Positions 422 to 62,493 of a DNA stretch of 64,000 nucleotides are shown piece by piece (positions within the stretch are counted from its first letter, which is position 1; each line of letters opens with the position of its first letter). Under the pieces are notes generated by a model, which was given only the letters and a program-made list of their open reading frames with translations, ran no database searches and had not been told where the DNA came from. The translations under genes and the position numbers were made by a program. This DNA comes from Candidatus Parcubacteria bacterium (GTDB lineage Bacteria > Patescibacteriota > Minisyncoccia > UBA6257 > JAGOQP01): NCBI GenBank assembly GCA_025999395.1, contig AP024682.1, forward strand, positions 69,386 through 133,385, read 5' to 3'.

Positions 422-3070
422 TTAAGAGATAGCCACCAGATTGGGTTTTTTGAGACTAATTTTAACCCTTTTCTTTCCATAAAGCTCTCCTCTAATAATT
501 TTATCCGCCAACGGATCCAGTATTTTCTTTTGAATTACTCGTTTTATAGGACGGGCACCAAAAACTTGATCGTAGCCTTCCTTGACTAAGAGATGTTTTA
601 CTGAAGGATCGATCTCCACCTTAAATCCTTTTTCTTCCATCTTTTTAATTACTAAATTCTTTAATTGAATTTCCACAATCTTTTCCAAATCCTTTTCGTT
701 CAAGGGGTTGAAAATAACAATCTCATCTAATCGATTAAGAAACTCAGGGCGAAAATGATTCTTGAGTTCTTCGTTAATTTTTTCTCTAATAAATTCCAAA
801 TTTCTTTTTCTTTTTTCCTCTTCATCACCTCCCCTTTCAAATCCTAATAAAGAGCCTTCCTCTTTAAAATGTTCGCTTCCAATATTGGAGGTGAGAATGA
901 TGATAGTATTTTTAAAGTTAGCGGTTTTCCCTTTGGCGTCGGTAAGGCGGCCGTTGTCTAAAACCTGTAAAAGAATGTTAAAAACTTCCGGATGAGCTTT
1001 TTCGATTTCATCGAAAAGAATTAAGCTGTAAGGTCGATGACGAATAGTTTCGGTTAAATAACCCCCTTCTTCATAACCCACATAACCGGGAGGAGAACCG
1101 ATCAATTTAGCCACCGAATGTTTTTCCATAAATTCAGACATATCTATTCGAATCAGCGCCTTTTCATCATTAAACATAAATTCTGCCAAAGCTTTTGCGA
1201 GCTCTGTTTTTCCTACTCCCGTTGGTCCCAAGAACATAAATGAGCCAATGGGGCGATTCTCATCAGCCAAGCCGGCTCGAGCTCTTCTTAGAGCGCTTGC
1301 TACTGTTGCTACTGCGTGATCTTGTCCAATCACTCTTTGTTTAAGAATCTCCTCAATTTTTAGCATTTTTTCTGCTTCTGACTCCATCATTCGAGAAACA
1401 GGAATCCCTGTCCAGCGAGCTACTACTTTAGCAATATCCTCTTCGTTTACCGCTTCTCGAATGAACCGAAGATCTCCGCTGGAAGACTTTCTTTTGGTTT
1501 TCTTTTCTAAACTCTTCAGCTCTTTCTCTAAAGCTGGAATTTCTCCATAAACAATGCGTGCCACTCTGTCGAAATTACCATTTCTTTCCTCTAACTCAGC
1601 CTCTCTTTTAAGATCATCGATTTTCATTTGAATTTCGTGAAGCCGGTTGAAAAGACTTTTTTCCTTTTCCCATAAATCAGTAAGCTTTTCATTTTCTTTT
1701 TTAAGAACTTCTAAATTTTTTTCGATCTCTTTAAGACGGCTTTTACTTTGAGGAGAAGTTTCTCCGGAAAGAGCTGATTTTTCTATCTCAAGGCGATTAA
1801 TTTCCCGACGGACTTTTTCAATTTCTGCTGGCACACTATCAAATTCTAATCTTTTAGCAGCGGCTGCTTCATCGATCAAATCAATGGCTTTGTCTGGCAA
1901 AAATCTATCAGTTAAATAGCGAGAGGAGAGAGTTACTGAAGCAACGATCGCTTCGTCAGAAATTTTGATTCCATGATGGACTTCGTATTTTTCTTTTAAT
2001 CCGCGCAAAATAGCAATACTATCTTCAATTGAAGGTTCATCAACAATAATTGGAGCAAATCTTCTTTCTAGGGCTGGATCTTTTTCAATATACTTTTGAT
2101 ACTCCTTTATAGTAGTAGCTCCAATTGCTCTTAATTCTCCTCTGGCGAGGGCTGGCTTTAAAAGATTAGAAGCATCAATCGCTCCTTCGGCTGCTCCTGC
2201 TCCCACAATAGTGTGAATTTCATCAATGAAAAGAATTAATCTTCCTTCCGAAGATTGGATTTCTTTAATAAAAGCTTTTAAGCGATCCTCAAAATCTCCT
2301 CTAAATTTGGTTCCAGCAATTAAAGATCCCAAATCAAGCATTATAATTTCTTTATTTTTCAAACTTTCAGGAACTTCTCCAGCAACAATTCTTTGAGCTA
2401 ATCCTTCAACGATAGCGGTTTTTCCTACTCCCGGCTCTCCAATTAAAACTGGATTGTTTTTAGTGCGGCGGGAAAGAATTTGAATCACTCTTCTTAATTC
2501 TTCATCTCTTCCAATTACCGGATCAAGTTTTCCTTCTCTAGCTTTCTGAGTAAGATTAATGGAATATTTCTCCAAAACTCTAAATTTGTTTTCAGGCATT
2601 TCATCTGTTACTCGAGTTGAGCCTCTTACTTCATCTAAAATTCTTTCGGCTGTTTCTTTGCGAAAACCAAACTCTTCCAAAATTCCTGAAGCTGAAGAAG
2701 GAACTTGAGCAATAGCCACCAACAAATGTTCACAGGAAATAAATTCGTCCTTTCTTAAAGCAGCTATTTTTGCAGCTCGATCTAAAACTTTAATTAGTTC
2801 CTGAGAAAGGAAAAGTTGCCCCACCGCTGGCGGCTGACTAGTAAAAATTTTGGGTTGCCTTTCTAATTCTCTTTCAATCTCTCTGTCAATTTCTTCCAAA
2901 TTAATTCCTGCCTTAACTAACATCGGCTGAACCAACGATTGAGAATCAGAAATAAGAGCCGCCAAAAGATGAATAGCCTTAAGCTCGCCGTGATTTTTAG
3001 AGGCTGCGATTTCTTGCGCTCCTTGGAGAGCTTCCTGAGCTTTTATCGTAAAACGATTAAAGTGATTCAT
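422..3070 (-). CDS. clpB: ATP-dependent chaperone ClpB (Hsp100 disaggregase)
   Basis: 882 aa; Clp N-domain; two AAA+ modules with Walker A GEPGVGKT and GPTGVGKT; long coiled-coil middle domain. Confidence 0.95.
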
Positions 3071-3161
3071 ACTTGGATTTTAATTTTAATCCAAAAATTC
3101 AAGAAAAGCCAGACCTTTTGCTCTTTTAAAGCCTTTAAAACAAGAAGAACTTATCTTGGAG

Positions 3162-10728: not shown

Positions 10729-11379
10729 ATGGAAATTAAAAATTTTAAGGAAATTTTAAAAAGTTATCTTAAAGAAAAAGGGGTTAGCCCTCAAGAGCTA
10801 TCTCAGGAAACCGGTATTGTTTATCACTATATTCAAGCTTTTTTAGAGGGAAATTTTGAAAAGCTTCCTTCTTTGCCTTATGTAAGAGGATATCTTCAAA
10901 AAATTGCTGATTATTTAGAAATTGATTTCGAAGAACTCTGGCAGCAATATCAAAAAGAAGCTCCTATTAAAAAATCCGGCGAAGAAGACAAAATGCCAAC
11001 CAACCGTTTTGCTCCTCAACCTCTGAATAAAAAAAACATCGCGATTGTTGTTTTGATTCTTATTATTCTTTCTTTGGTTATTCCTCGATTAGCTAAATTC
11101 TTGGGCTCCCCTCAAATTACTATTATTAGCCCCAACAAAGATAATTTAGTTGTTAGTCAACAAAACTTTTTACTAAAAGGACAAGTTGATAACCCTCAAG
11201 ACAAAGTACTTATTAACAACGAGGAAGTTTTTGTTCTCCCCGATGGAAGTTTTGAGAAGGAGGTTTTTCTAACAGAAAAAATAAATCTCTTTCAATTTAA
11301 AGTAAAAAGATTTTTGGGGAAAGAAATCACTTTGGAAAGAACAGTTATCTACGAGCCTCAAGCTTCACCAACCAACTAA
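10729..11379 (+). CDS. RodZ-like helix-turn-helix membrane protein
   Basis: 216 aa; N-terminal XRE-type HTH, single TM, C-terminal extracytoplasmic domain; sits immediately upstream of recA. Confidence 0.55.
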   Translation: MEIKNFKEILKSYLKEKGVSPQELSQETGIVYHYIQAFLEGNFEKLPSLPYVRGYLQKIADYLEIDFEELWQQYQKEAPIKKSGEEDKMPTNRFAPQPLNKKNIAIVVLILIILSLVIPRLAKFLGSPQITIISPNKDNLVVSQQNFLLKGQVDNPQDKVLINNEEVFVLPDGSFEKEVFLTEKINLFQFKVKRFLGKEITLERTVIYEPQASPTN

Positions 11380-38035: not shown

Positions 38036-38947
38036 ATGAAAGAGATTCAAAAATACCTCAAAGAATACCTTGATTACTTAGAAATAGAAAAAAACCGCTC
38101 TCCAAAAACAGTGGAAAACTATCGTCGTTATTTATCAGAATTCATTAATCAAGAAAAAATCTCTTCTCTTGAAGAAATAGATCAAGATAAAATTCGCCAC
38201 TTTCGAATTTGGTTGGCTCGACGCCAAGGAAAAGAAGAAGGGTTTCTTAAAAAAAACACCCAAAGCTACTACATCATTGCCTTAAGAAATTTTCTCAAGT
38301 ATTTAATTAAAAGAAATGTAAAACCAAATGTACTTCCCGAACAAATCGAATTACCCAAAATTCCTCAAAGACAAATAGAAATTATAGAATATAGCGACTT
38401 GGAAAGATTTTTGAATGCTCCTCAAGGAGATTCTTTGAGAGCTTTAAGAGATAAAGCAATTCTAGAAATACTTTTTTCTACCGGCCTGAGAGTTTCTGAG
38501 CTTTGCTCTCTTTCCCGCTACCTTAATATAGAAAAAGGAGAAATTACCGTTCGGGGAAAAGGGGGAAAGTTAAGAGTCGTTTTTCTTTCTCCACGCGCTC
38601 AAAAGGCTTTAAAAAATTATTTAGAAAAAAGAAGTGATGCCGAAGAAGCTTTATTTGTTAGTTTAACCAAATCTAAAAATCCTAAGGTAATCGGAAGAAT
38701 TCTTCCTCGCACCGTTCAAAGAATAGTTAAATATTACGCCAAGAAAGCAGGAATTGTAGGAAAGGTTACTCCTCATCAATTGCGTCATCAATTTGCTACT
38801 GATCTCTTGTTAAATGGAGCTGATTTGCGCTCTGTCCAAGCACTCTTGGGTCATGCCAACATCTCTACCACCCAAGTCTATACCCACCTTACTAATAAAG
38901 AGCTGAAAGAAATTCACAAAGCTTTTCACGGGCGAAGAAGAAAATAA
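38036..38947 (+). CDS. tyrosine site-specific recombinase, XerC/XerD-like
   Basis: 303 aa; N-terminal SAM-like domain; catalytic R...HxxR...Y with LGHANISTTQVYTHL. Confidence 0.85.
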   Translation: MKEIQKYLKEYLDYLEIEKNRSPKTVENYRRYLSEFINQEKISSLEEIDQDKIRHFRIWLARRQGKEEGFLKKNTQSYYIIALRNFLKYLIKRNVKPNVLPEQIELPKIPQRQIEIIEYSDLERFLNAPQGDSLRALRDKAILEILFSTGLRVSELCSLSRYLNIEKGEITVRGKGGKLRVVFLSPRAQKALKNYLEKRSDAEEALFVSLTKSKNPKVIGRILPRTVQRIVKYYAKKAGIVGKVTPHQLRHQFATDLLLNGADLRSVQALLGHANISTTQVYTHLTNKELKEIHKAFHGRRRK

Positions 38948-38951
38948 GGTG

Positions 38952-39032
<81 letters not shown>

Positions 39033-39260
39033 ATCATTTGTTTAAAAATAGTATTACAGATATCGCTTTTTTTCAATCTATTTTACCTTAAGTTTGTTTC
39101 ACGAGCGTAGGTAGATTTTTCCTCTTTACAAAAACGATTTTCTGTTAATCATATTTTGATCGTAACAAACACTACCCAAAGTTAATTTTATTGGCATTAC
39201 TCCAACTTAGACTCTTACAATCTCTAACTTTCAAAACAAGACTCAATAACAATATTGAAG

Positions 39261-39289
39261 TTGACAAAATTATAGAAATATTGTAGTAT
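39261..39289 (+). promoter_or_regulatory. sigma70-like promoter (TTGACA-17nt-TAGTAT) driving the GC-rich SPFH cassette
   Basis: -35 at 39261-39266 and -10 at 39284-39289, ~105 nt upstream of the ATG at 39397. Confidence 0.55.
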
Positions 39290-39328
39290 TTAATTTAGAA
39301 CCTTGATAACACCAAACCAACAACCAAC

Positions 39329-39396
39329 CGCTCGTCCTTAGAGAAAGGACGAGCAAAACAAAATCCCCGCTAGGAGGCGGGGAAAGGAGGTGTGAG
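39329..39396 (+). promoter_or_regulatory. structured 5' leader with two GC-rich hairpins and a strong RBS
   Basis: CGCUCGUCCUU-agaga-AAGGACGAGC is a perfect 9-10 bp stem (39329-39354). CCCCGC-uaggag-GCGGGG spans 39365-39382. AGGAGG sits 7 nt before the ATG. Confidence 0.5.
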
Positions 39397-40587
39397 ATGT
39401 TTAACTTTTCTTCTATCTGGGTAAACTGGGTGACAACTATCGCAGTTGCGATTGTTGTCGCCATCCTGCTGGCCAGAGCGGTGCGACTGTTAGCCACAAG
39501 GAAACTCGACATACTTCGTGGAACCTCGGGATTTATCCTCGGATGGGTCCTGTCGCTCACTCTCTCGGGTATGCTAGTTGGCATCGCTTTGCTGGTTGCC
39601 AAGAAGCAGTTACCAGAAGACTTACCAATTGTGACTCGACTTGCTCTGTTCTTCTCTTGGATACTCGCATCAGTTGGTCTTGCTACTATTATGATGTATA
39701 AATGGTACAAGACCTACCCACCAACTCCGCCGTTCAAACTCGCTTTCAAATTTCTCGGCAACTACATACGATCCGGACACAAGATTGCGCTCTACGAAGG
39801 GGGTAATTGGTTCTTGCCTCCCCTCAAGTGGTTACTGACCCCAGTGAAGATATTTCTAGGAAACAGAGAGTTCGAATACAAGATCAAAGGGGTGATGACA
39901 AACGATCAGGTTACATCTGACATCAGCAAGAGATGGCGATACCGCTTAGACGAAGAAAATCTAAGTGCTTTTCTTTTTGTTTGTGGAGAGGTGGATGATG
40001 AAGTTGGAGACGCTCAATTTAAGAAATTCGAAGACTTTCTTGAAGAGGAAGGAGCTCAGGGGGTGAGAGAGGTTGTCGCTAATCCGAACGTTGATCCCCA
40101 CACTTGGGATCAACTCAAGCCTTCTGGAGAGACGCTTGTAGGAGCAACTCTCTGGAAGATTCTCAATGGTGGAGACATGAGAAATGCAGATAAGACAACT
40201 GTTGAAGCACGAGTAGCAGATGCTTTAGCAAAAATGCGCTCTTCTCAAGCTAAAGTGGATCGGTACGGTATCATCATCTTGGACGGCAAAGTCGCGGAAG
40301 TCGATACTGACCCAGATGTGGTAAGAGCAGCCAAGCAAAAAGTTGTTCGCACCAAGGAGTTAGAGGCTGAGAAAGACGCGCAGAACATCGCCTTAGCGAA
40401 CACACTAGCTCAGGCCAGAGGCGTCCGCAAGGCCTTTCCCGGTGCGAGCGACGAAGCCAGGATGAACTTTCTCCAGCGAATCCTCCACAAAATCCCCGGA
40501 GAAGTAAACACCACTGAGATTCAGGGCGGAGCGATCCCTCTCATTAACATCTCAGCCCCAACAAAAACAAAGAAAGGAGGTAGATAA
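39397..40587 (+). CDS. SPFH/band 7 (stomatin/flotillin/HflK-like) domain membrane protein, GC-rich
   Basis: 396 aa; 3-4 N-terminal TM helices; SPFH core (VMTNDQVTSDISKRWRYRLDE ... YGIIILDGKVAEVDTDPDVVRAAKQKVVRTKELEAEKDAQ, the latter matching the WGIKV..VEIKDI..P..I..AM..Q..AEREKRA consensus); Ala-rich coiled-coil tail. GC far above the window background by eye. Confidence 0.7.
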   Translation: MFNFSSIWVNWVTTIAVAIVVAILLARAVRLLATRKLDILRGTSGFILGWVLSLTLSGMLVGIALLVAKKQLPEDLPIVTRLALFFSWILASVGLATIMMYKWYKTYPPTPPFKLAFKFLGNYIRSGHKIALYEGGNWFLPPLKWLLTPVKIFLGNREFEYKIKGVMTNDQVTSDISKRWRYRLDEENLSAFLFVCGEVDDEVGDAQFKKFEDFLEEEGAQGVREVVANPNVDPHTWDQLKPSGETLVGATLWKILNGGDMRNADKTTVEARVADALAKMRSSQAKVDRYGIIILDGKVAEVDTDPDVVRAAKQKVVRTKELEAEKDAQNIALANTLAQARGVRKAFPGASDEARMNFLQRILHKIPGEVNTTEIQGGAIPLINISAPTKTKKGGR

Positions 40588-41093
40588 TGACTAACAAACC
40601 AGCATTTTCCGATAAGACTCGAGAGTGGGGGAAAAAAATGATGACCGCTGCCATTATTATTGCCTCACTCTCGGTCGTGCTCGGGATTTTTTGGAGCGGC
40701 GGCGGAAAAAAGCAGGCTACCGTCACCGCCGTCAGGCAATCGGTGGTCGTCGGTTTTGGCGAAGCCAAAACCGTCGACCTCCGCCAGGGCCCCGTGGAGG
40801 TCACCCTCCTCTTTACTGAGGAGGGGTGGATGGATTTTTGGGGTGATGATCGCCCAGGGAACTGGGTGAAAATCACCCCGGAGAACCACAAAGGGCCGGC
40901 GCTTCTCGTTCGCGCTGGCGAGTACCTCCCTCTTCCAAGAGCGAAGGGAATGTACAGGTTTAAAGTTGAAGGAAATTGTCAAATCACGTTTTGGCTCCAC
41001 CGCTTGGACGATAATGTTCCTCCAGGCGGTGTCCCTACATCACCAACACCACGTACACCACTACCTCAACCTAAATTAGCATCGCACATATAG
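40587..41093 (+). CDS. small membrane-anchored beta-rich protein, possible NfeD-like partner of the SPFH protein
   Basis: 168 aa; start overlaps the upstream stop (TAATGA); one N-terminal TM then a soluble beta-rich domain and Pro-rich tail; same high GC. Confidence 0.45.
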   Translation: MTNKPAFSDKTREWGKKMMTAAIIIASLSVVLGIFWSGGGKKQATVTAVRQSVVVGFGEAKTVDLRQGPVEVTLLFTEEGWMDFWGDDRPGNWVKITPENHKGPALLVRAGEYLPLPRAKGMYRFKVEGNCQITFWLHRLDDNVPPGGVPTSPTPRTPLPQPKLASHI

Positions 41094-41101
41094 CACATCT
41101 T

Positions 41102-41130
41102 AGCCCGACATTGTCGGGCTTTTTCTTTTG
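41102..41130 (+). terminator. rho-independent terminator of the SPFH cassette
   Basis: AGCCCGAC-auu-GUCGGGCU followed by UUUUUCUUUU, 9 nt after the stop codon. Confidence 0.8.
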
Positions 41131-41246: not shown

Positions 41247-41630
41247 TTACATCAATCCTCCTCCGGAAGAAAGCGATCTTTGGACAAAATAAACAATGGT
41301 GTAGGAAAGAAGTCCAACCGCAATTCCAATCACTGCATACATCAACATTTTTTTGGCTGTGCCAACCTTCGTTTGATCTCCTTTACTGGTGACGAAGTTG
41401 TAAGCCGCCAAAATAATAAACAGCGTAGCAACGATGAAAAGAATAGTGTAAATCCATTGCACAATCTTAACAAAGACTCCTACTCCCTCACCAATTGTTG
41501 TTGGACCAGTTACTGGCACTGGTGGAGGAGGGGGTTGACCGGGAGTAAACTGAGCAAGAGCAACTAAAGAACCAGTTATTCCCCAAACCAGCAAAAGAGT
41601 GCTAGCACCTAATAAAATCTTTTTAATCAT
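41247..41630 (-). CDS. paralog 1 of 7: small secreted two-helix membrane protein (VirB2/TrbC-pilin-like architecture)
   Basis: 127 aa; signal peptide; Pro-rich variable segment (GQPPPPPVPVTGP); conserved C-terminal module ILAAYNFVTSKGDQTKVGTAKKMLMYAVIGIAVGLLS. Confidence 0.6.
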   Translation of the reverse strand: MIKKILLGASTLLLVWGITGSLVALAQFTPGQPPPPPVPVTGPTTIGEGVGVFVKIVQWIYTILFIVATLFIILAAYNFVTSKGDQTKVGTAKKMLMYAVIGIAVGLLSYTIVYFVQRSLSSGGGLM

Positions 41631-41730
41631 AGTTATTTTTTATTCTCTTTTAGTTATTTTTTATTCTCTTTTATAAACGACCTTTCTTAAAAATTAATTT
41701 TAACTTACTTTGAAATTGTAGCATATTTTT

Positions 41731-42123
41731 TTAAAAAAGGAAGAATCTCATCTGCCCAGAACCCTCTAACAAGAAGTTTTGTATTAAAATTGAAATGCCC
41801 CCCGACATTAAAGCGACAACGATTGCCACAATCGCCCACTTAATCTGATTTTTGGCGTTTTTAACTTTTGTTTCATCTCCTCGGGAAAAAACAAAGTTGT
41901 AGGCTGCTAGAATAATAAACAAAACCGCCACTAAAAAGAAAAAGGTATAAACATAGCCAATAATTCGATAAATCATCAGCCAAATCTGGTTTGGAGCCTC
42001 TATTGGTGAGCCAGTAATATTTTGAGGACCCTGGGGAGTAAATCTAGCCGCTTCTGTCAATAACAGATATCCCCAAAAAAACACGAGGAAAAATATTGAA
42101 ATAAGCTCTTTTTTGTTTTTCAT
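41731..42123 (-). CDS. paralog 2 of 7: small secreted two-helix membrane protein
   Basis: 130 aa; signal peptide; variable N-region; conserved module ILAAYNFVFSRGDETKVKNAKNQIKWAIVAIVVALMSGGISILI. Confidence 0.6.
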   Translation of the reverse strand: MKNKKELISIFFLVFFWGYLLLTEAARFTPQGPQNITGSPIEAPNQIWLMIYRIIGYVYTFFFLVAVLFIILAAYNFVFSRGDETKVKNAKNQIKWAIVAIVVALMSGGISILIQNFLLEGSGQMRFFLF

Positions 42124-42149
42124 AAAAAATATTAATATAGACCTTCTTT

Positions 42150-42563
42150 TTAAGAGGCGGCGGAAAGAAAGCTTCCAATAATAAGAGAAATTCCTCCCGA
42201 CACCAAAGCGACAATAATTGCGATCACCGCATATTTAATTTGAGCTTTGGCTGTTTTTAATTTGTTTTCATTAGTCCCTCCTGTCAAAAAATTATAAGCC
42301 GCTAAAATCAAGAAAAGAATAGCGACAACAAAAAAGGTGTCGAAAATAACAATTACAATATTGTAAACTAAATCGTAAACATCTTCATAATGTTTTAAGG
42401 GAGAGGCTTGCTCTATTTCACGAGGTACAATATTAATATCCTGGGGTTTAATAATAGCCTTTACTTTATTTGCATATGAGACTAAAAGATAGAAAGAAAT
42501 AATCGCCCAAGAAAGAAGTTTGTCTTTTTTTTCTAAGAAAAAATTCATAAAAATAAAAAACAA
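42150..42563 (-). CDS. paralog 3 of 7: small secreted two-helix membrane protein
   Basis: 137 aa; conserved module ILAAYNFLTGGTNENKLKTAKAQIKYAVIAIIVALVSGGISLIIGSFL. Confidence 0.6.
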   Translation of the reverse strand: MFFIFMNFFLEKKDKLLSWAIISFYLLVSYANKVKAIIKPQDINIVPREIEQASPLKHYEDVYDLVYNIVIVIFDTFFVVAILFLILAAYNFLTGGTNENKLKTAKAQIKYAVIAIIVALVSGGISLIIGSFLSAAS

Positions 42564-42575
42564 AATTTTAATTTA

Positions 42576-43001
42576 TTATGAACCAGCTTTTTCAAGAAAA
42601 GAACCAATAATCAAAGAAACACCACCCGATATTAATGCCACCACAATTGCAATCACCGCATACTTAAGTTGAGACTTAGCTTTTCTTAATTTATCCTCAT
42701 TAGTACCGCCAGATAAAAAGTTATAAGCCGCCAAAAGAATAAACAAAATAGCCGCGGCGCCAAAGGCCATATAGATGTAATTTACAATGCTTACAATTAC
42801 ATTCTCCACAAACTTATAAGCATCTGCTTCACTACCTGTTACCACTGACTGCTCCTTGAAAGGAGCAATGGTTTTTTCATCAAGAGCAGCAAAGGCAATC
42901 ATATTTCCGAAAAATAAAAAGAAAAAGAAAAAAGCTAAACCATTCTTCAATAAAAGATGGAGAGAAGCCTTTTTTGTTTTTTTTAGGAACTCTTTTCTCA
43001 T
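42576..43001 (-). CDS. paralog 4 of 7: small secreted two-helix membrane protein
   Basis: 141 aa; conserved module LLAAYNFLSGGTNEDKLRKAKSQLKYAVIAIVVALISGGVSLIIGSFL. Confidence 0.6.
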   Translation of the reverse strand: MRKEFLKKTKKASLHLLLKNGLAFFFFFLFFGNMIAFAALDEKTIAPFKEQSVVTGSEADAYKFVENVIVSIVNYIYMAFGAAAILFILLAAYNFLSGGTNEDKLRKAKSQLKYAVIAIVVALISGGVSLIIGSFLEKAGS

Positions 43002-43044
43002 AAGCCTCTATAAAAAAATAACTCCTAATTCTTGATTAATCAAC

Positions 43045-43428
43045 TCAACTTCCCGCTGATTGAAGAAAGCTTTTGATAATAAGAGAGACTCCTCCCGCTA
43101 CCAAAGCAACAACAATGGCAACAACCGCAAATTTCAATTGGTTTTTTGCTTGCTCAACTAACTTTGCGTCCTGCCCTGCCCTTAGATAAGTAAAAGCAGC
43201 CCATAGTATTGCGCCCACCGCCGCTATAAAGAAGATCGTGTACATATAACCAACAATTCTTTGAAGAACACCGATAATATCATTAACACTTTTTATTGGG
43301 GAATCAATTTGGTCATTATTTTGGTTATTATTACTATCCGCCCCATAAACAGAAAAAGCTCCCAACAAACCCAAAGCCAACACTATTAAAAGGTAATAAG
43401 CTCTTTTAAGATAGAAAGTCTTCTTCAT
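43045..43428 (-). CDS. paralog 5 of 7: small secreted two-helix membrane protein
   Basis: 127 aa; Asn/Gln-rich variable N-region; conserved module WAAFTYLRAGQDAKLVEQAKNQLKFAVVAIVVALVAGGVSLIIKSFL. Confidence 0.6.
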   Translation of the reverse strand: MKKTFYLKRAYYLLIVLALGLLGAFSVYGADSNNNQNNDQIDSPIKSVNDIIGVLQRIVGYMYTIFFIAAVGAILWAAFTYLRAGQDAKLVEQAKNQLKFAVVAIVVALVAGGVSLIIKSFLQSAGS

Positions 43429-43466
43429 ATTCTAAATACTAACATCTTAATTTTAAAAAGTAAAAA

Positions 43467-43865
43467 CTAAGGCAAAACCTGTTCTACTTTAGATGAATCT
43501 ATTCCCAAAATTTCAGCCAAGATATAAATAATTCCACTAGAAATTAAAATCACTACCGCTCCAATAGCAGCGTAGGTGAGAGTTTTTTTGCCTTGTTTAA
43601 ATTTATTTTCATTATCTCCCGCGGTAAGCATTTGAAAACCGCCAATCAAAAACATAATTGTTAAAATTGGCATCGAAACTTTAATCATATAGTTAATGGT
43701 ATCTTTAAGAATGGTAGAAAAGGTTCTCCCTCCCAAGGGATTGTGCAATTCCACAGTTTCGCTTCCGCTATCAGCAGGACCCCCGGGTTGACCTCCGCTT
43801 TGAGCAAAAGAATTCTGCGCTTTTAAAACAAAAAAAAGAAAAATCCAAAATAATTTTTTAATCAT
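43467..43865 (-). CDS. paralog 6 of 7 (divergent): small secreted two-helix membrane protein
   Basis: 132 aa; Gly/Pro-rich variable N-region; module FQMLTAGDNENKFKQGKKTLTYAAIGAVVILISSGIIYIL. Confidence 0.55.
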   Translation of the reverse strand: MIKKLFWIFLFFVLKAQNSFAQSGGQPGGPADSGSETVELHNPLGGRTFSTILKDTINYMIKVSMPILTIMFLIGGFQMLTAGDNENKFKQGKKTLTYAAIGAVVILISSGIIYILAEILGIDSSKVEQVLP

Positions 43866-43923
43866 AAAAATTTAATTTGAAAAATTATATCACTTATTCT
43901 AAAAAATAAAAACTTTTTTGTGC

Positions 43924-44367
43924 TTACTTTTGAATATTTAAAAATCCCACTAAAGTATCAACAATTAGCCAAGCCCCAAAAGCAATCAATAAAGCAATTA
44001 TAACCGACCTGATATAATCCTTTCCCTTAGAAAAGCGAGACTCGTTTCCTGCCGAAGTCATCATCAAAAATCCTCCCACAATAATCCAAATAACCCCTAC
44101 CGGCAAAGCAATATAAAACAAAGCAAACTGAATAATTCTGTCGACCATCACCCAGAAATGAGGAAAGGTGCAGTAAACCCCATTATATCCGCAAGGAACC
44201 AGACCTTCGTTGCTACTGCACTCAAGTCTGGAGTTTTCATCACAAGGAACCGCCAAAACACTCGAGGAAAAGATACTAAAAAAAGCCAATAGTACTGGGA
44301 GAAAAAGAAAAATTTTTTTGGGGAAAGAAAAAAGATTCATCTTTTTCTTTATTTTAATTGAAAACAA
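43924..44367 (-). CDS. paralog 7 of 7 (most divergent, Cys-rich N-region): small secreted two-helix membrane protein
   Basis: 147 aa; mature N-region has 5 Cys (PCDENSRLECSSNEGLVPCGYNGVYC); module FLMMTSAGNESRFSKGKDYIRSVIIALLIAFGAWLIV. Confidence 0.5.
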   Translation of the reverse strand: MFSIKIKKKMNLFSFPKKIFLFLPVLLAFFSIFSSSVLAVPCDENSRLECSSNEGLVPCGYNGVYCTFPHFWVMVDRIIQFALFYIALPVGVIWIIVGGFLMMTSAGNESRFSKGKDYIRSVIIALLIAFGAWLIVDTLVGFLNIQK

Positions 44368-44383
44368 TAAAAATAAGCAAGAA

Positions 44384-45697
44384 CTACTTTCGGTAAAAAT
44401 AATTAATTTCTGTTTCCGCAGCCTTTAGAGCTTGCCTTCTTTGAATTTTTCCGGAAAGAACATCAGAGATGGTTTTTTTCAAAACCTCTCTTATAGCTGG
44501 ATAATTAGCTTTGGGCCACGTCTTGGCAATCAGAAAACCCTTCAGAAAGGGAGCGTTCTCCTGCTCTAACCCTTGATTGATAAGAGATTTTAAGGCTGGA
44601 AGATGGTTAGCTGTCTGTAAATACTGGCTATATAAAGTAGGATTGGTAACAAAAAACTTAATAAAATGCCAAGAAACATAAGGATTGGGAGATTGAGCCG
44701 AAACCCCTAACCCCCAATAATCAGCTAAATTCGCTTGGCGAGAAAAACTCGCTCCCTTTATCTGAGGAAGAGGAGCCACTCCAAAATTCAAGAAGGGATT
44801 TTTTTCTTTTATCTTAGCTAAAGAGCTGTAAAAATCGATCATCATCGCTAATTTTCCAGCCGCAAAAGCAGACAGAGAATCTTCTAAGCCTTCATTCCAA
44901 GTATAGTAAGGATTGAGAGGATCAGAAAACTGGAGATAAAAATCAAAAGCTTTTTGAGCATTGGCATCAAAAGAAATTCCTCCTTCCGAAGAAGCAATTG
45001 GGGATCCGGATTGAATCATTAGCAAAGTTAAAATTTCGGGGGCGTTATTGATGTTAACAGAAGTACCCAAAGCAATGGCCGGCACAGAAATTTTTTTACT
45101 TTCATCAAGCTCTCTTATCTTTAAAACATCATCTAAAACTTCTTCCCAATCAGAAGGAGGAAAAACAACTCCTTTGGCACTAAAAATATCTTTGTTATAA
45201 ATTAAAGCCAAGGAATCCAAATAAAGCGGCAGAGCATAAACATTGTTTGATAAAACAAAATCCTTAAAAACCACCTCCGGATAAATTTGAGAGACCAATT
45301 GAGGAGTGATAACTTTAGCGGGCGCTGGCCTCAACTTTCCCCAATTTTCATTCACCCAAGAAGAGTGGACCATAAAAATATCAGGCCCCCTTCTTTCTGC
45401 CAAAGCATTAACTAATTCTTTCTGATAAGCCTCGGGATCATCAAACTTAAAATAACGAATTTCCACATTTTTGTAGAGGTTCTTGTAAGCCTGAATAACC
45501 CCCTCAAAGGCGCTCGCTGGATCTCCCATCCCCCAAATAGTTAATTGAACTTTGCCGGTGGGAAAATCAGGATCGCCGCTTACCTGTCCCTTCTTTTGAA
45601 AAATGGGTAAAATCCCAACAGCTCCCAAAACAATTACAAGAATTATAAAGAATCCAATCCCGAGAATAATAATTTGATTTTTATCAAAAGCGGGCAT
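44384..45697 (-). CDS. membrane-anchored extracellular solute-binding protein (ABC-type SBP family 1-like), orphan
   Basis: 437 aa; N-terminal TM anchor; MalE-like SBP fold features; no adjacent permease or ATPase genes; 16-bp gap to paralog 7. Confidence 0.6.
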   Translation of the reverse strand: MPAFDKNQIIILGIGFFIILVIVLGAVGILPIFQKKGQVSGDPDFPTGKVQLTIWGMGDPASAFEGVIQAYKNLYKNVEIRYFKFDDPEAYQKELVNALAERRGPDIFMVHSSWVNENWGKLRPAPAKVITPQLVSQIYPEVVFKDFVLSNNVYALPLYLDSLALIYNKDIFSAKGVVFPPSDWEEVLDDVLKIRELDESKKISVPAIALGTSVNINNAPEILTLLMIQSGSPIASSEGGISFDANAQKAFDFYLQFSDPLNPYYTWNEGLEDSLSAFAAGKLAMMIDFYSSLAKIKEKNPFLNFGVAPLPQIKGASFSRQANLADYWGLGVSAQSPNPYVSWHFIKFFVTNPTLYSQYLQTANHLPALKSLINQGLEQENAPFLKGFLIAKTWPKANYPAIREVLKKTISDVLSGKIQRRQALKAAETEINYFYRK

Positions 45698-48589: not shown

Positions 48590-49225
48590 CTAAATCTTAA
48601 AGGTAACGATTTTGGTCTTTTTAATCTCTACTAAATCCTTTTTCTTAAAAACAAATTTTTCCAGCATCTTTTCTACCTCGCCATTAAAATGAATTAAGAT
48701 TGCTTCTAGCCCTTGAGCCTTTCTTTTTAAGCCAGCCACTTTGTAAAAAGAAGGCAGATAAATCTTGGGATTAAGTTGCTTTACCAACTTAACCAATAAC
48801 TCCTGAGAAAGAAAAGGTTCACCGCCGGCAGGAGCAATTAAAACATCAACCTCTTCAAAATTTTCCAAAATTTCAGGCGAAGGAAGCAAAGAAAGATGCC
48901 CCAAAATCCCTATCACTATTTCTTCCCACTTAACAACAAAAGCACTTTTAAAAAATTTATCAGACGATTCGCTTTTCAAAGAAAAGCCTCTGATTTTAAT
49001 TTCTCCAATATCATATTCGCCCGCTCCCCAGATAACAAAATCAGCGTTATTTTTCTCAGCTTCTTGAGAAAATGGAAAGGGCCAAGGGGTTAGGCTTTTT
49101 ATCAAAATATTACTTCGAAAACGAGGGACACTAAATCCTAAATTAGCTTCCGGAGGATCAATCAAAATTGTTTTCTCTCCATTTTGAATTTTAAAGCATC
49201 CTTCTCCGTACCAAGAAATAATCAT
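48590..49225 (-). CDS. metallo-beta-lactamase-fold metal-dependent hydrolase (UPF0173-like)
   Basis: 211 aa; the N-terminus MIISWYGEGCFKI resembles the UPF0173 start MKITWxGHS; lacks the canonical HxHxDH motif, so may be degenerate. Confidence 0.6.
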   Translation of the reverse strand: MIISWYGEGCFKIQNGEKTILIDPPEANLGFSVPRFRSNILIKSLTPWPFPFSQEAEKNNADFVIWGAGEYDIGEIKIRGFSLKSESSDKFFKSAFVVKWEEIVIGILGHLSLLPSPEILENFEEVDVLIAPAGGEPFLSQELLVKLVKQLNPKIYLPSFYKVAGLKRKAQGLEAILIHFNGEVEKMLEKFVFKKKDLVEIKKTKIVTFKI

Positions 49226-49412: not shown

Positions 49413-50534
49413 ATGCTTATTAACAAAACGGAAGAAACAAAAAAGTCTCAGGTTTTGGCAAAAATAATCAAAAACAATCCAAACCTAGTCGCTCCCTTAA
49501 AGGAGGGAGATTCTTTGGAGGGAGAACTTCTTTATAAAGATAATCGCTGTGCCTTCTTTGATTTGGAAGGAAGAGGAACAGGTATTTTATTTGGAGTAGA
49601 ATTTCTTAATGCCAAAGACATCCTTAAAAATGTTAATGTTGGCGAGAAATGTTCTTTAACGATTAGTGGCCCCGAAAATGAAGACGGCTACTTTGAGGTT
49701 TCTTTAATTAAAGCTTTGTGGAAACAAAATTGGCAGGAAGTAAAAAAGCTTAAAGAAGAAGGGGAAAGTGTGATTGTTAAAATCAGCGGCGCCAACACCG
49801 GCGGTCTTTTAACCGAACTTTTTGGAATCAAGGCTTTTATTCCGGTTTCTCAACTTTCTGCCCAAAACTATCCTCATGTAGAAGACGGAGATAAGAATAA
49901 AATTTTAGAAGAACTAAAAAAATTAATTGGTCAGGATTTAGAAGTAAAAGTTTTGGATTTTAATCCTAAAGAAGAAAAATTAATTCTTTCCGAAAGAGAG
50001 GTAACCGGTGAGGAGGTAAAAAAGAGTTTGGAGAAATACAAAGTAGGTGATGTGGTGGAGGTAATTGTTTCAGGGGTGGCTGACTTTGGAGTTTTCGTTA
50101 AATTTGCTGACGATCCCAATATTGAAGGGTTGGTTCATATTTCTGAAATCGATCATAAACTCATCGACTCTCCCAAAGAAGTAGTAAAAGTTAATGATTC
50201 GCTGAAAGCTAAAATTATTGAAATTAAAGATGGAAGAGTTTCCTTATCCTTTAAAGCCCTAAAGCCTAATCCTTGGGATGACGCTAAAAAATACTTTGCA
50301 GTTAATCAGGAGGTAAGAGGAAAGGTAACTAAAATTAACCCCTTTGGGGCTTTAGTTTACTTAGGCCATGATTTGCAGGGATTAATTCATGTTTCTGAAT
50401 TTGAAAATCAAGAAAAAATGAAAGCCACTCTAGAGATTGGTAAAGAATATGATTTCGTTATCACTCAACTGAAGCCCGAAGAAAAAAGAATTATTCTCAA
50501 GCTTAAGAGTAAAACTACCCAATCCGATAAGTAA
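49413..50534 (+). CDS. rpsA: 30S ribosomal protein S1 (four S1 domains)
   Basis: 373 aa; repeated S1/OB domains (GxV..V..FGAFV type). Confidence 0.85.
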   Translation: MLINKTEETKKSQVLAKIIKNNPNLVAPLKEGDSLEGELLYKDNRCAFFDLEGRGTGILFGVEFLNAKDILKNVNVGEKCSLTISGPENEDGYFEVSLIKALWKQNWQEVKKLKEEGESVIVKISGANTGGLLTELFGIKAFIPVSQLSAQNYPHVEDGDKNKILEELKKLIGQDLEVKVLDFNPKEEKLILSEREVTGEEVKKSLEKYKVGDVVEVIVSGVADFGVFVKFADDPNIEGLVHISEIDHKLIDSPKEVVKVNDSLKAKIIEIKDGRVSLSFKALKPNPWDDAKKYFAVNQEVRGKVTKINPFGALVYLGHDLQGLIHVSEFENQEKMKATLEIGKEYDFVITQLKPEEKRIILKLKSKTTQSDK

Positions 50535-50703: not shown

Positions 50704-52548
50704 ATGCGAAATAAAATAGTTAAAAATATTTTAGTAGCAGTTTTAATCTTTATCTCAATCCTGCTTTTCTTTTCCACTCTTTCTCTTCCTCAAAAAGAAG
50801 AGGTAGCCAAGCTAACCTTAAATGATTTGGCTAAAGGAATTAATGAAAATCGAGTGAGCCGAATCGTTGTTGAAGGAGAAATCATCAAAGCTACTTTTAT
50901 CGATGGCAAAAAGGGAGAAACTAAAAAAGAAGTTGAGACAAGCTTATCAGAAACTCTCAGAAATTTTGGAGTAGCTCCAGAAAAACTTTCTCAAATCCCT
51001 ATTGAGATTAAAGAAGAATCGAGTCTAAAGTTCTGGGCCAGTATTCTTTTACCCAGTTTAATCCCGGTAATTATTATTGGAATCTTTTTCTGGCTAACTT
51101 TTCGGCAGGCGCGTTCGGGAGCTTCTCAAGTTTTTAACTTTGGAAAATCAAACATTCGTCTCTTCACCCCCTTTAAAGACAGAATCACTTTTGCTGATGT
51201 GGCCGGCTTAAAAGAAGCCAAACAAGAGCTGATGGAAATTGTTGATTTTTTAAAAAATCCTAAAAAGTATTTGGACTTAGGAGCTCAAATTCCCAGAGGA
51301 GTTTTACTTTTAGGACCACCGGGAACCGGAAAAACTTTAATGGCGCGAGCAGTTGCTGGAGAGGCTGGAGTTCCCTTTTTTCATATTAGCGCCTCTGAAT
51401 TTGTGGAGATGTTTGTGGGAGTAGGAGCTTCTCGCACTCGAGATGCTTTTGCAACCGCCAAAAGAGCAGCCCCTTCTATTCTTTTCATCGATGAAATTGA
51501 TGCGGTGGGAAGAGAAAGAGGAGCCGGGCTGGGAGGAGGACACGATGAAAGAGAACAAACCTTAAACCAAATCCTGGTAGAAATGGATGGATTTGAAAAA
51601 GATGCTCAAGTAATTGTTTTAGCAGCTACTAATCGTCCTGATATTTTGGATCCAGCGCTTTTAAGGCCCGGACGATTTGATCGCCGAGTGGTTTTGGATC
51701 TACCGGATTTATCAGATCGAGAAGAGATCTTAAAAATTCACGCTCGCAACAAGCCTCTGGCTGCCAATGTTGACTTAAGACAAGTGGCTATTCGCACACC
51801 GGGATTTTCTGGAGCAGAATTAGCCAACTTAGTAAATGAAGCTGCTATTTTAGCCGCTCGCAAAGGAAAAAATAAAATTGAACAAATAGAGTTGTATGAA
51901 GCAATTGAAAAGGTTTTACTAGGACCAGAAAGACGTTCACGAGTACTCAGTAAAAAAGAAAAAGAAATCACCGCCTACCACGAAGCCGGACACGCATTGG
52001 TTGCCGCCTGCCTAAAACACGCTGACCCCGTTCATAAAGTTTCAATCATCGCCCGCGGACAAGCTGGAGGCTACACTCTTAAACTTCCCAGCGAGGATAT
52101 TTATCTTAGAACTCGAAAACAATTTTTGGCTGATATGGCAATAATGTTTGGAGGCTACAGCGCCGAAGAAATTACTTTTGGTGATATTTCTACCGGTGCT
52201 TCCAATGATTTACAAGTTGCCTCAGAAATGGCTCGAAAATTGGTAACTAAATATGGAATGAGCGAAAAGTTTGGCCCCCTAACTTTTGGAAAAACTCAAG
52301 AGCTTATCTTTTTAGGAAAAGAAATAACTACCGAGAAGAATTATTCAGATGCTATTGCCTATGAAATAGACAAAGAAGTAGAAAAATTAATTCAAAGATC
52401 TTATCAAGCGGCCAAAAAAATTATTCAAAAGAAAAAAGGAGTTTTGGAATTTATTGCCAAAACCTTAATAGAAAAAGAAACTATCGAAAAAGATGAGTTT
52501 GAGGAAATCATTAAAAAATTCAAAATCAAAAAAGAAGAGATAAGCTAA
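50704..52548 (+). CDS. ftsH: ATP-dependent zinc metalloprotease FtsH
   Basis: 614 aa; two TM; AAA module GPPGTGKT; HEAGH zinc motif. Confidence 0.95.
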
Positions 52549-59839: not shown

Positions 59840-60961
59840 CTAAGAAGATCTAATTGGCATTACAATGTAAACAAAAGTTTGATCTCCCACCGCTTTAATT
59901 AAACTGGCTTTTTCTTCTCCATTTAATCCCCAAAAAATCTCTTCTGACTTAAAATTTTTAATTCCATCTAGTAAAAATTTCCAGTTAAAAGTAATTTGAC
60001 TAACACTACCTTTAATTTTAGCGGGTAAAAGATATTCATTTTCTCCAAATTCTGAACTAGAAGAGGAAATTTTTATATTTTTTAAATTATCACTAACCTC
60101 AAAACGGACCTCGTTTAGGCGATTAGAAAAAGAGCTGGTGAGTTTTAAAGCATTAATAAAATCCTCTTTTTCCAAAACAATTTCTGTTTCAAAGGATTTA
60201 GGAATTACCATCTCATAATCCGGAAAATTTCCTTCTATTAAGCGAGAAATAATTGAGGTTTGTTGAGTTTCGAAAAGAACCTGATTTTCTTCGAAAAAGA
60301 TTTTGATATTTCCTTCCTTTAAAGAGGAAAAAATTTTAATCACTTCTTGAATAGTTCTTAAAGGAATAATAAAAGAAACCTCTTTTTCTAATTGAGTCTC
60401 AAATTTTTTAGTAGTAATTGTTTTTTCTGCTAATCGAAAACTATCAGTAGCCACCAACTTAATTTGGTTATCTTTAAAAGAAAAAAAGACTCCGGAAAGT
60501 TCGGGACGAAATTCTGAAGTTTGGCAAGCAGGAACAACATAAAGCAAGCTTTCTATAAAGACACCACTTTCAATAGTAAAAAAGTTGTTCTTTCTTCTTT
60601 CTACTTGAGGGATAATTGGATAATCGTCTTTAGGAACGGTAGTGATTCGAGCTTTGTAATTATCGGTACTTATTAGTAAATTTCCCTTTTTAAGTTCTAA
60701 ATTTACCCTTTCAAAAGAGAGATTATTAATGATTTGAGAAAAAATTTGATAAGGAATTACTACTGATCCCCCCTCAATATTTTTACTAGAAACAAAGTGA
60801 GTAATTCCAATTTCTAAATCAGTAGCCGACATTTTTAATCCTCCGTCAGTTGTTTCTAAAAGAAAATTCTTTAAAACCGGAAGATTACTAGATTCTTTTC
60901 TAGCTCCTGAAATTATCGATAATCCTTCTTTTAAATTAGTTTTTAGTGCGACAACATTCAT
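59840..60961 (-). CDS. dnaN: DNA polymerase III beta sliding clamp
   Basis: 373 aa; three-domain beta-clamp pattern; located immediately downstream of dnaA. Confidence 0.9.
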   Translation of the reverse strand: MNVVALKTNLKEGLSIISGARKESSNLPVLKNFLLETTDGGLKMSATDLEIGITHFVSSKNIEGGSVVIPYQIFSQIINNLSFERVNLELKKGNLLISTDNYKARITTVPKDDYPIIPQVERRKNNFFTIESGVFIESLLYVVPACQTSEFRPELSGVFFSFKDNQIKLVATDSFRLAEKTITTKKFETQLEKEVSFIIPLRTIQEVIKIFSSLKEGNIKIFFEENQVLFETQQTSIISRLIEGNFPDYEMVIPKSFETEIVLEKEDFINALKLTSSFSNRLNEVRFEVSDNLKNIKISSSSSEFGENEYLLPAKIKGSVSQITFNWKFLLDGIKNFKSEEIFWGLNGEEKASLIKAVGDQTFVYIVMPIRSS

Positions 60962-61119: not shown

Positions 61120-62493
61120 TTATCCGGATGAATTGTTTTTATAAATCATTTCTTTAATAATTGAAATTTTTTGGCTTAAAGCTTTATCTTTTATTATTTC
61201 TTTAGAAATTTTTTCATAAGAATGAATGGCGGTGGTGTGGTCTCTTTTTCCCATCTTATCCCCAATGTCTGGGTAAGACATCCCCAGCATATCCCTCATT
61301 AAAAACATTGCGATTTGACGGGGAAGAACCACTTCTTTTCTCCGGGATTTATTAATTAATTCGTTTTGGTTAATTTCAAAGAATTGACTAACTGCTTTAA
61401 TGATTTGTAAGGGATTGATAGCAACAGCGCTTTGTTGAATAACTGAATTGATTATTTCTTCGGCGGTTTTTAAATCAATGTTATTAGTTCCCTTAAATTC
61501 CTGATAAAAATGGAGTTTATTGATAATTCCCTCAATTTCTCTAACACTTCTCTGAAGTTTGGAAGCAATGAGGTGACAAATGTTGTCAGCTAATTCAATT
61601 CCTTTTTCTAAGGTTTTGTTTTTAATAATTGCCAATCTCATTTCATAATCTGGGTAAGTAATATCAGCAATCATTCCTCCCTCAAAGCGGGAACGCAACC
61701 TTTCCTCTAAGGTTGAAATAGCAGAAGGGGGACGATCGGAAGAAATGATAATTTGTTTGTTATTTTGATAAAGAAGATTAAAAGTGTGAAAGAACTCTTC
61801 CTGACTTCTTTCTTTTCCTCCAATAAATTGAATATCATCAATAATTAAAACATCTACTGAGCGGTACTTATTTTTAACATCCTCCATTCTTTTAGAACGA
61901 ATAGCCCAAACCACATCATTAACAAATTTTTCTGAAGGAACATACTTTACTTTAATTTGGTTGTTGTAATTTTTTACAATTTCATTTCCAATTGCTTGAA
62001 TTAAGTGGGTTTTTCCTAAACCCGTACCCCCATAAACAAAAAAGGGATTATACTTTTTTCCTACCGCTTTAGTAATTGCTACTGCTGCTGTATAAGCTAA
62101 TTCATTAGAAGAGCCAACAACAAAATTTTTAAAAGAATAGCGAGGATGAAGGTTGGTTTCGGGATCGGTATTAATTTGAGCAATTTCCTTTTGAGGAAAA
62201 TGATTGGCTATTGGCTTTTGAAAACCATCTTCTTCTTTGTTTTTAGAAATTACCACGTATTCTACTCGACTAATTGAGCTATCGATTTCCTGAAGAGCTT
62301 CCAAAATGATTTTGTGATATTTAGTTTGAATCCATTCTTTAGAGAAAGTGTTGTTAACTCCTACAATTGCTACTCCGGTTTCGTCGTTTTTGTCGAGAAG
62401 ACAGCTATTTTTAAACCAAGTTAAAAAGTTTGGTTTTGAAATTTGTAGCTCTATTGAAGCAAGTACCTTTTCCCAAACTTTTTTTAATTCCAT
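61120..62493 (-). CDS. dnaA: chromosomal replication initiator DnaA
   Basis: 457 aa; AAA+ Walker A GGTGLGKTHL; C-terminal DNA-binding domain with the basic loop and helix. Confidence 0.95.
   Translation of the reverse strand: MELKKVWEKVLASIELQISKPNFLTWFKNSCLLDKNDETGVAIVGVNNTFSKEWIQTKYHKIILEALQEIDSSISRVEYVVISKNKEEDGFQKPIANHFPQKEIAQINTDPETNLHPRYSFKNFVVGSSNELAYTAAVAITKAVGKKYNPFFVYGGTGLGKTHLIQAIGNEIVKNYNNQIKVKYVPSEKFVNDVVWAIRSKRMEDVKNKYRSVDVLIIDDIQFIGGKERSQEEFFHTFNLLYQNNKQIIISSDRPPSAISTLEERLRSRFEGGMIADITYPDYEMRLAIIKNKTLEKGIELADNICHLIASKLQRSVREIEGIINKLHFYQEFKGTNNIDLKTAEEIINSVIQQSAVAINPLQIIKAVSQFFEINQNELINKSRRKEVVLPRQIAMFLMRDMLGMSYPDIGDKMGKRDHTTAIHSYEKISKEIIKDKALSQKISIIKEMIYKNNSSG

Follow-up and report, generated by a model that had tools for sequence, protein, structure and literature searches.

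The subject of this analysis is a compact, GC-rich cassette of two overlapping genes in Candidatus Parcubacteria bacterium, encoding a divergent SPFH/band-7 membrane protein (gene 1) and a small membrane-anchored partner (gene 2). It lies in a stretch of 64,000 nucleotides of contig AP024682.1 (assembly GCA_025999395.1), referred to below as the window. On one side it abuts the 5' side of a tRNA-Leu(UAG) gene, with the gene of a Xer-type tyrosine recombinase beyond, as an earlier note made from the sequence alone had correctly described; on the other side stands an array of VirB2-like pilin genes of the type IV secretion system (T4SS). The features are listed here by their positions in the window, protein lengths being given in amino acids (aa):

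38036..38947, plus strand: Xer-type tyrosine recombinase (Pfam Phage_integrase, 146 bits, and SAM_1; NCBIfam XerC, XerD and XerA_Arch)
38951..39032, minus strand: tRNA-Leu(UAG), its 5' end facing the cassette (ARAGORN; Rfam tRNA, 59 bits)
39261-39289, plus strand: sigma-70-like promoter, TTGACA-17-TAGTAT, agreeing with the consensus in 10 of 12 positions
39330-39383, plus strand: 5' leader with two GC-rich hairpins (39330-39354 and 39364-39383; stems of 10 and 8 bp)
39386-39390, plus strand: Shine-Dalgarno sequence GGAGG, preceding the ATG at 39397
39397..40587, plus strand: gene 1, divergent SPFH/band-7 membrane protein, 396 aa
40585-40590, plus strand: stop/start overlap TAATGA, with GGAGG at 40576-40580 (translational coupling)
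40587..41093, plus strand: gene 2, partner protein, 168 aa, translationally coupled to gene 1
41102-41125, plus strand: intrinsic terminator, an 8-bp GC stem (hairpin 41102-41120) followed by TTTTTCTTTT; z = -6.4 for the fold
41247..44367, minus strand: seven tandem VirB2-like (T4SS_pilin) genes, Pfam PF18895, convergent on the cassette

The self-contained anatomy that the earlier note had ascribed to the cassette (near-consensus promoter, two leader hairpins, Shine-Dalgarno sequence, TAATGA coupling and terminator) is borne out, all of these signals having been located; they make the stretch between about 39260 and 41125 an operon complete in itself, probably one that is strongly expressed. 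The leader folds with a minimum free energy of -39.2 kcal/mol (z = -6.9). No Rfam family matches it, and the sub-threshold Rfam matches further downstream correspond merely to terminator hairpins.

Base composition and the two proteins

The GC content of the cassette (39397-41093) is 0.496, against 0.361 for the window as a whole; the other 1.7-kb windows of the 64 kb average 0.359±0.021 and reach at most 0.407 (z = 6.7), and a 200-nt profile rises at about 39300 and falls again at about 41100. At third codon positions the GC content (GC3) is 0.494 in gene 1 and 0.550 in gene 2, compared with 0.294±0.040 in the 52 other open reading frames (ORFs) of at least 100 aa (z 5.0 and 6.4, respectively), so that the two cassette genes take the first two ranks among 54 ORFs; the first and second codon positions (GC1 and GC2) are elevated as well. 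The strong GC excess over the AT-rich remainder of the window, from which the earlier note had started, is therefore confirmed, while its statement that the cassette generates spurious ORFs in all six frames is somewhat too sweeping: the cassette is overlapped in other frames by five ORFs of 60 aa or more, which amounts to several frames and not literally six. The synonymous codon choice of the cassette fits the backgrounds of two related loci (L074 and L016, described below) slightly better than that of its own genome.

The protein of gene 1 matches the Pfam family Band_7 (PF01145) over residues 131-328 with 28.5 bits and an E value of 1.9e-6, above the gathering cutoff of 23.6 bits that is also passed by its homologs in loci L010 (35.5 bits) and L016 (27.8 bits); in NCBIfam it has no match. 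An AlphaFold2 (AF2) model built from the 11-sequence family alignment, with a predicted local distance difference test score (pLDDT) of 78, has three N-terminal hydrophobic helices (4-35, 40-71 and 77-103), followed by an alpha/beta SPFH domain with a helical insert, a coiled-coil helix of 40 residues and a disordered Lys/Gly tail; the members of the family carry one to three such N-terminal helices. The profile match, the alpha/beta fold with its long coiled-coil helix, and the N-terminal membrane anchor together identify the protein as a member of the SPFH group, and the band-7 core and coiled coil that had been recognized by eye in the sequence are thereby upheld. The SPFH and coiled-coil part is predicted to be cytoplasmic, because in most family members the number of transmembrane (TM) helices and the distribution of charges (the positive-inside rule) would place the SPFH domain there. 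In word-indexed protein searches gene 1 matched only itself and the family profile gave 3 matches; it was an exhaustive phmmer search, yielding 11 matches, that revealed the family.

The protein of gene 2 begins with a short basic stretch, continues with a single TM helix and a beta-sandwich at residues 50-140, and ends in a Pro-rich tail. Its single-sequence AF2 model combines the TM helix with a confidently predicted beta-sandwich (pLDDT 80-90 over 50-140), in agreement with the small, single-TM, beta-rich protein foreseen in the earlier note. No Pfam family matches it at E ≤ 1, nothing was found for it in NCBIfam, PHROG or PADLOC, and no homolog of it emerged from a word-indexed search of 5.8 billion proteins. 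The folds nearest to the model are the PPC/collagen-binding domain, the C-terminal domain of the C. perfringens enterotoxin, and the CBM, CUB and GOLD domains; these are binding-type extracellular sandwiches, and NfeD is not among them. An identity of gene 2 with NfeD (PF01957) was considered and rejected, since there is no profile match and the predicted structure is a sandwich of 7-8 strands instead of an OB-fold barrel. What stands of the proposed SPFH-NfeD pairing, then, is a membrane-anchored partner encoded in one operon with an SPFH gene; its NfeD half does not. The partner proteins are basic before the TM helix and have an acidic/Pro-rich linker after it, and for this reason gene 2 should be a type-II single-pass protein with its beta-sandwich outside the cell.

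The slot in related genomes

A retrieval anchored on the Xer gene gave 61 genome loci and 80 metagenome loci, cited here by number where they must be told apart. The gene order PNPase-NYN-S15-Xer-slot-pilin array-SBP-GyrA is conserved in the relatives, and homologous two-gene cassettes occupy the slot in the loci listed below (protein lengths of genes 1 and 2 where given, followed by the GC of the cassette relative to its flanks):

Window: 396 + 168 aa; about 14 points higher
L010: 362 + 158 aa; 17 points higher (GC3 0.62-0.63 against 0.328±0.034, z 8.6-8.8)
L016: 505 + 241 aa; about 9 points higher (GC3 0.72-0.75 against 0.50-0.66)
L068 and L069: 5 to 7 points higher, moderately GC-rich
L074: 406 + 157 aa; 0 points (GC3 0.52 against 0.527), native-like
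L012 (419 + 171 aa) and L013: 2 to 4 points lower, native-like
L071/L072: in L071 about 5 points lower, AT-richer than the flanks
L073: contig stops before the downstream neighbour

The pairing of both genes is kept in all cassette loci whose contig reaches far enough, and in each locus with downstream sequence the cassette and the last pilin gene of the array converge. Homologous cassettes with enough upstream sequence mostly have a TTGACA ... TATAAT-like promoter and GGAGG; leader hairpins recur in L010, L012, L013, L068 and L069, the leader motif ACCAACAACCAA is common to the window and L068, and a terminator hairpin is present in every cassette having downstream sequence. The partner proteins have kept their position, size and architecture across loci and have nearly lost their sequence similarity, except for a faint x-P-G-D/E strand motif. 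The large proteins still align pairwise from end to end (E values 5e-8 and 2e-7) at an identity of 22-29%, compared with 61-84% for the backbone proteins around the same slot. Between L012 and L013 the cassette is 61% identical and the housekeeping proteins 91-97%, by which measure the cassette evolves about 5 times faster than these. From such comparisons, the cassette of the window is the local version of a small, very fast-evolving family that is restricted to one clade of Patescibacteria: the homologous cassettes in the same slot of the relatives make the family endemic to the clade, and the event in the window therefore is best seen as a replacement of one cassette type by another and not as the arrival of a foreign novelty.

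A direct example of such a replacement between conserved flanks is, by sequence comparison, provided by L068 and L069. On the pilin side their flanks agree in 88% of nucleotides (293 bp, pilin gene), and across promoter and leader in 71% (126 bp), whereas no alignment is possible between the coding cores and only a distant relationship is left between the proteins (BLASTP 52-55 bits); they belong to different cassette types. Other loci hold no cassette or a different cargo. In L007 and L008 the tRNA stands alone in a Xer-pilin gap of 250-430 bp, and L011 and L077 also lack the cassette, which thus is absent from several of the nearest relatives. In L012 a GIY-YIG gene and an H+-PPase-like ORF have been added in the slot. 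L153, whose Xer C-terminus is the closest to that of the window (88%), carries after tRNA-Leu (1700-3149) a non-homologous cargo with its own promoter, consisting of the gene of a 292-aa immunoglobulin-like protein (weak Big_3_5 match) and a second ORF; its GC is 0.52, against 0.30-0.40 in the flanks.

The cassette is not an artefact of assembly. The SPFH protein is identical to the "SPFH domain-containing protein" of the Patescibacteria metagenome-assembled genome (MAG) GCA_026419535.1 (contig JANZZF010000005.1) and is found on six further contigs of ENA, Logan and JGI assemblies. Nucleotide identity between the window and the contigs that carry it is 98.7-100%, which makes the window a strain of the same species. 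The cassette junctions are identical wherever they are covered in seven independent assemblies (NCBI, ENA, Logan and JGI; different samples and pipelines), and a chimera is thereby ruled out. Differences among the strains are patchy: between 34000 and 50500 of the window, blocks without any difference from L001-L003 (38500-43000 and 45500-50000) alternate with blocks of 2-9% divergence, a pattern of single-nucleotide polymorphisms (SNPs) that points to mosaic recombination between strains. The cassette and the first four pilin genes fall inside a block free of SNPs. In one JGI metagenome contig of the same species (L075/L076) the SPFH gene lacks 17 bp, equivalent to positions 39475-39491 of the window, and is out of frame beyond codon 26; the contig shows either an assembly error or a pseudogene allele, and in the latter case the gene would seem to be dispensable.

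The seven pilin genes next to the cassette are 40-75% identical to one another. The fifth to the seventh of them (43000-44500) form the most polymorphic region among the strains, with up to 45 differences per 500 nt from L001. Directly upstream of the first pilin gene, at 41630-41671, lies a perfect 21-bp tandem duplication (TAGTTATTTTTTATTCTCTTT, two copies); L003 differs from the window there by a single 21-nt gap, apparently at this repeat, that accounts for all differences (22) in the bin 41500-42000, and the copy number of TAGTTATTTTTTATTCTCTTT seems to vary between strains. VirB2-like pilin arrays are reported to be widespread in Patescibacteria and at least one array to be essential; they comprise 2-11 variable pilins, with T4SS genes placed near the origin (PMC12102498). 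In array size and near-origin placement the window agrees with this description, its seven PF18895 genes being separated from dnaN and dnaA by roughly 17-20 kb (about 20 kb in the case of dnaA). The term SPFH occurs zero times in the text of that paper, which mentions no SPFH neighbour of the arrays, and a full-text literature search for Patescibacteria together with SPFH returned nothing relevant. The link between cassette and pilin array is positional only.

The more distant genes of the window that matter for its setting are:

50704-52548: ftsH, encoding FtsH (AAA and Peptidase_M41)
59840-60961, minus strand: dnaN
61120-62493, minus strand: dnaA

The cassette is about 20 kb from dnaA and the region of the replication origin. 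Cumulative GC skew and gene orientation flip near 49.3 kb, between the genes at 48590-49225 (minus strand) and 49413-50534 (plus strand), and this skew minimum does not coincide with dnaA and dnaN (59.8-62.5 kb). SPFH proteins of the HflK/C type are regulators of FtsH. In the window the FtsH gene lies 10 kb from the SPFH gene; the two are not adjacent and there is no evidence of a tie between them.

Origin of the cassette

Our preferred explanation, which we hold to be reasonably probable, is that one cassette type has replaced another at a hot spot of recombination and that the donor was a member of the clade with a higher GC. The place of the family is fixed: it is near oriC, with the Xer/tRNA-Leu backbone on one side and the 3' end of the VirB2-like pilin array on the other. 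The present cassette type would have come from such a donor and entered the genome through recombination between conserved flanking sequences, in exchange for an older cassette or into a slot that was vacant, with no part played by the neighbouring recombinase and without use of the tRNA as an attachment (att) site. Both directions of GC discordance in the family, together with the unrelated GC-rich cargo in L153, are what is expected from an exchange among genomes that differ in GC, and a purely upward GC drive would not give this two-way pattern. A plausible donor type, judged by composition and gene order, is represented by L074, which has the same gene order in a genome of 47% GC and a cassette matching its own background. 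The earlier claim of a horizontal acquisition thus holds for the foreign composition and for the absence of the cassette from several of the nearest relatives; it has to be modified in so far as the family is endemic, and the acquisition probably was a replacement within the clade. The same note had reserved the opposite outcome, a cassette syntenic in all relatives and of native-like composition, as an argument against acquisition, and half of this was found: the cassette keeps the same slot in L010, L012, L013, L016, L074, L071, L068 and L069, its composition being native-like in L012, L013 and L074 and foreign in the window.

Several observations weigh against a replacement from a higher-GC donor. 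The homolog of gene 1 nearest to it in the phmmer search is 30% identical, i.e. neither a donor nor a close relative was found, and a Xer-anchored scan of JGI metagenomes likewise gave no full-length relative closer than about 75%, except within the same species. At the host distances available the identities among cassettes are saturated (22-29%), and with this saturation and the fast evolution an incongruence between the phylogenies of cassette and host cannot be proven; the bit scores, suggestive only at such identities, are 193-210 for L010 against L073 and 40 for L010 against the window. Finally, most loci with usable flanks, comprising at least three cassette types, have a cassette whose GC exceeds that of its surroundings, and this recurrent excess could reflect an upward GC drive specific to the locus, in place of transfer.

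This last point leads to the strongest alternative, namely vertical inheritance of the cassette in an ancestral slot, its high GC having arisen by a locus-specific process; candidates for the latter are GC-biased gene conversion, fed by frequent recombination events at a hypervariable locus, and selection in favour of an mRNA that is GC-rich, structured and stable. The outgroups L016 and L074 have the slot filled, and presence of the cassette is therefore probably ancestral; the GC excess recurs in the window, L010, L016, L068 and L069 with different cassette types; the failure to find a donor and the saturated identities are compatible with vertical descent; and the patchy SNPs among the strains indicate active recombination around the locus. 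Such a drive is at odds, however, with the cassettes of L012, L013 and L074, which match their genomes, and with that of L071, which is AT-richer than its flanks. Nor does it account for the unrelated GC-rich cargo in the same slot of L153 or for the exchange of types between the conserved flanks of L068 and L069, and the rise of GC1 and GC2 along with GC3 suggests a long residence in a GC-richer background. On balance we think this alternative rather unlikely.

The earlier note had implied a genomic islet of the classical kind, inserted at tRNA-Leu by the tyrosine recombinase next to it, and the immediate vicinity of a tyrosine recombinase gene and a tRNA gene to a compositionally foreign segment (GC z 6.7) with a patchy distribution among relatives does fit the pattern of tRNA-integrated islands. 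The recombinase, however, is of the XerC/XerD/XerA type (238 bits for XerA_Arch, with a cutoff of 220) and comes after S15 in all relatives that were examined, be the slot full, empty or taken by other cargo. For these reasons it is a housekeeping recombinase, and Xer and tRNA-Leu are conserved backbone, not the integrase and att site of an island. The cassette contains no integrase and lies on the 5' side of the tRNA; a direct repeat of the tRNA-Leu 3' end was sought in the window as the expected att site, and neither 24-nt end of the tRNA is repeated elsewhere in the window with up to 3 mismatches allowed. No direct repeat was found to flank the cassette, and no dif-like repeat at its borders. 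Moreover, the cassette is always anchored to the pilin array, whereas the tRNA changes its orientation and position. The islet reading is largely refuted by these results, and we give it very little credence. Integration at dif by means of Xer, in the manner of integrative mobile elements exploiting Xer (IMEX), was dropped as well, for the locus lies about 20 kb from dnaA/dnaN and not at the terminus, and the cassette has no flanking dif-like repeat.

The gene of tRNA-Leu(UAG) is found near Xer in the relatives in either orientation: it is on the minus strand in the window, L007, L010, L014, L016 and L153 and on the plus strand in L008, L011, L012, L013 and L077, and in L011 and L077 the entire Xer-tRNA block is inverted relative to the pilin array. 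These flips mark the slot as a site of repeated small inversions. In L007, where the slot is empty, a perfect 40-bp palindrome (10921-10960; TTGTCCATGTTAATTCACGA and its reverse complement) follows immediately on the stop codon of Xer. The gene of a PaaX/Cas2-like domain protein (PaaX_M, 47-54 bits) stands between Xer and tRNA-Leu in L010 (11069-11647) and, oppositely oriented, in L153 (615-1208); it is absent from the window.

That the cassette is a moron or a defence gene pair of phage or plasmid origin, dropped into a hot spot, would agree with its location, with the variable cargo of the slot and with a self-contained unit bearing its own promoter and terminator. Against this, tblastn against 50,697 phage and 72,556 plasmid records was negative, there was no match in IMG/VR contigs, matches in PHROG were negligible and those in PADLOC nil, and no mobile-element genes are adjacent; a scan of metagenome and viral contigs with the family profile (alignment A4) found nothing either. 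We consider such an origin highly improbable. A diversity-generating retroelement was rejected as the source of the variability: the divergence spans the whole 1.8 kb, and no reverse transcriptase occurs among the neighbouring genes examined, although no dedicated search for one was made. An artificial joining of GC-rich foreign DNA to an AT-rich contig during assembly or binning, suggested by the sharp change of composition on a MAG contig, can practically be dismissed, given the agreement of both junctions in the seven assemblies and the recurrence of the tRNA-cassette-pilin arrangement in L010/L078.

Related systems and possible functions

Among the systems closest to the cassette are the SPFH-NfeD operons, such as E. 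coli QmcA-YbbJ (PDB 8z5g), Pyrococcus PH1511-PH1510 and Bacillus FloT-YuaF, with which it shares the layout of an SPFH protein plus partner. It differs from them in that its partner is without a PF01957 signal and is predicted to form a beta-sandwich of 7-8 strands instead of an OB-fold barrel, that this partner probably faces outward with an SPFH domain that would be cytoplasmic, that three TM helices stand at the N-terminus of the SPFH protein and a helical insert within its SPFH domain, and that the SPFH gene comes first and the partner gene second. Compared with HflK/HflC, the SPFH cage that modulates FtsH, there is a single SPFH gene in place of a pair of HflK/HflC paralogs, the predicted topology is cytoplasmic, not periplasmic, the gene is not beside ftsH, and the identity amounts to 13-14%.

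In its mode of variation the cassette recalls the flexible genomic islands of the replacement type (xenologous replacement), for instance O-antigen and capsule loci or the glycosylation islands of pilin and flagellin. Like these, it occupies a fixed slot with conserved flanks, in which mutually very divergent gene sets of discordant composition alternate without a dedicated integrase; unlike these, it comprises only two genes in about 1.8 kb, belongs to the ultra-small genome of a Patescibacteria member, and carries an SPFH protein with a surface beta-sandwich, not glycosylation genes.

The function of both proteins can be approached from fold and anatomy. If the protein of gene 1 resembles other SPFH proteins in this respect, it would assemble in the membrane into an oligomeric ring or cage, organizing or confining the protein of gene 2 by way of the TM segments. 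As a tentative suggestion, and a doubtful one, the SPFH protein and the outward-facing sandwich might be a hypervariable, horizontally swapped specificity module that is functionally tied to the VirB2-like pilin array of these episymbiotic bacteria. Such a module could serve as a membrane platform bearing an adhesin or surface receptor, by which hosts are recognized or surface exclusion is effected, or it could be a target of pressure from phages or hosts; lineages under diversifying selection may swap cassette types with one another. Patescibacteria, with their tiny genomes, live attached to host cells.

As a single case of a probable transfer of an SPFH operon within a clade, the cassette would be of ordinary importance. 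As a general caution, it illustrates that a GC anomaly beside a tRNA gene and a tyrosine recombinase gene need not be an integrase island. Its wider interest lies with the VirB2-like pilin arrays of Patescibacteria, which are poorly understood. The gene pair described here invariably sits at the end of one of these arrays, appears to be strongly expressed, evolves much faster than the backbone, exists in several types that cannot be aligned and bears signs of exchange between lineages that differ in GC content. The cassette slot thereby becomes a candidate locus for interaction with hosts or phages, of which few are known in these organisms.

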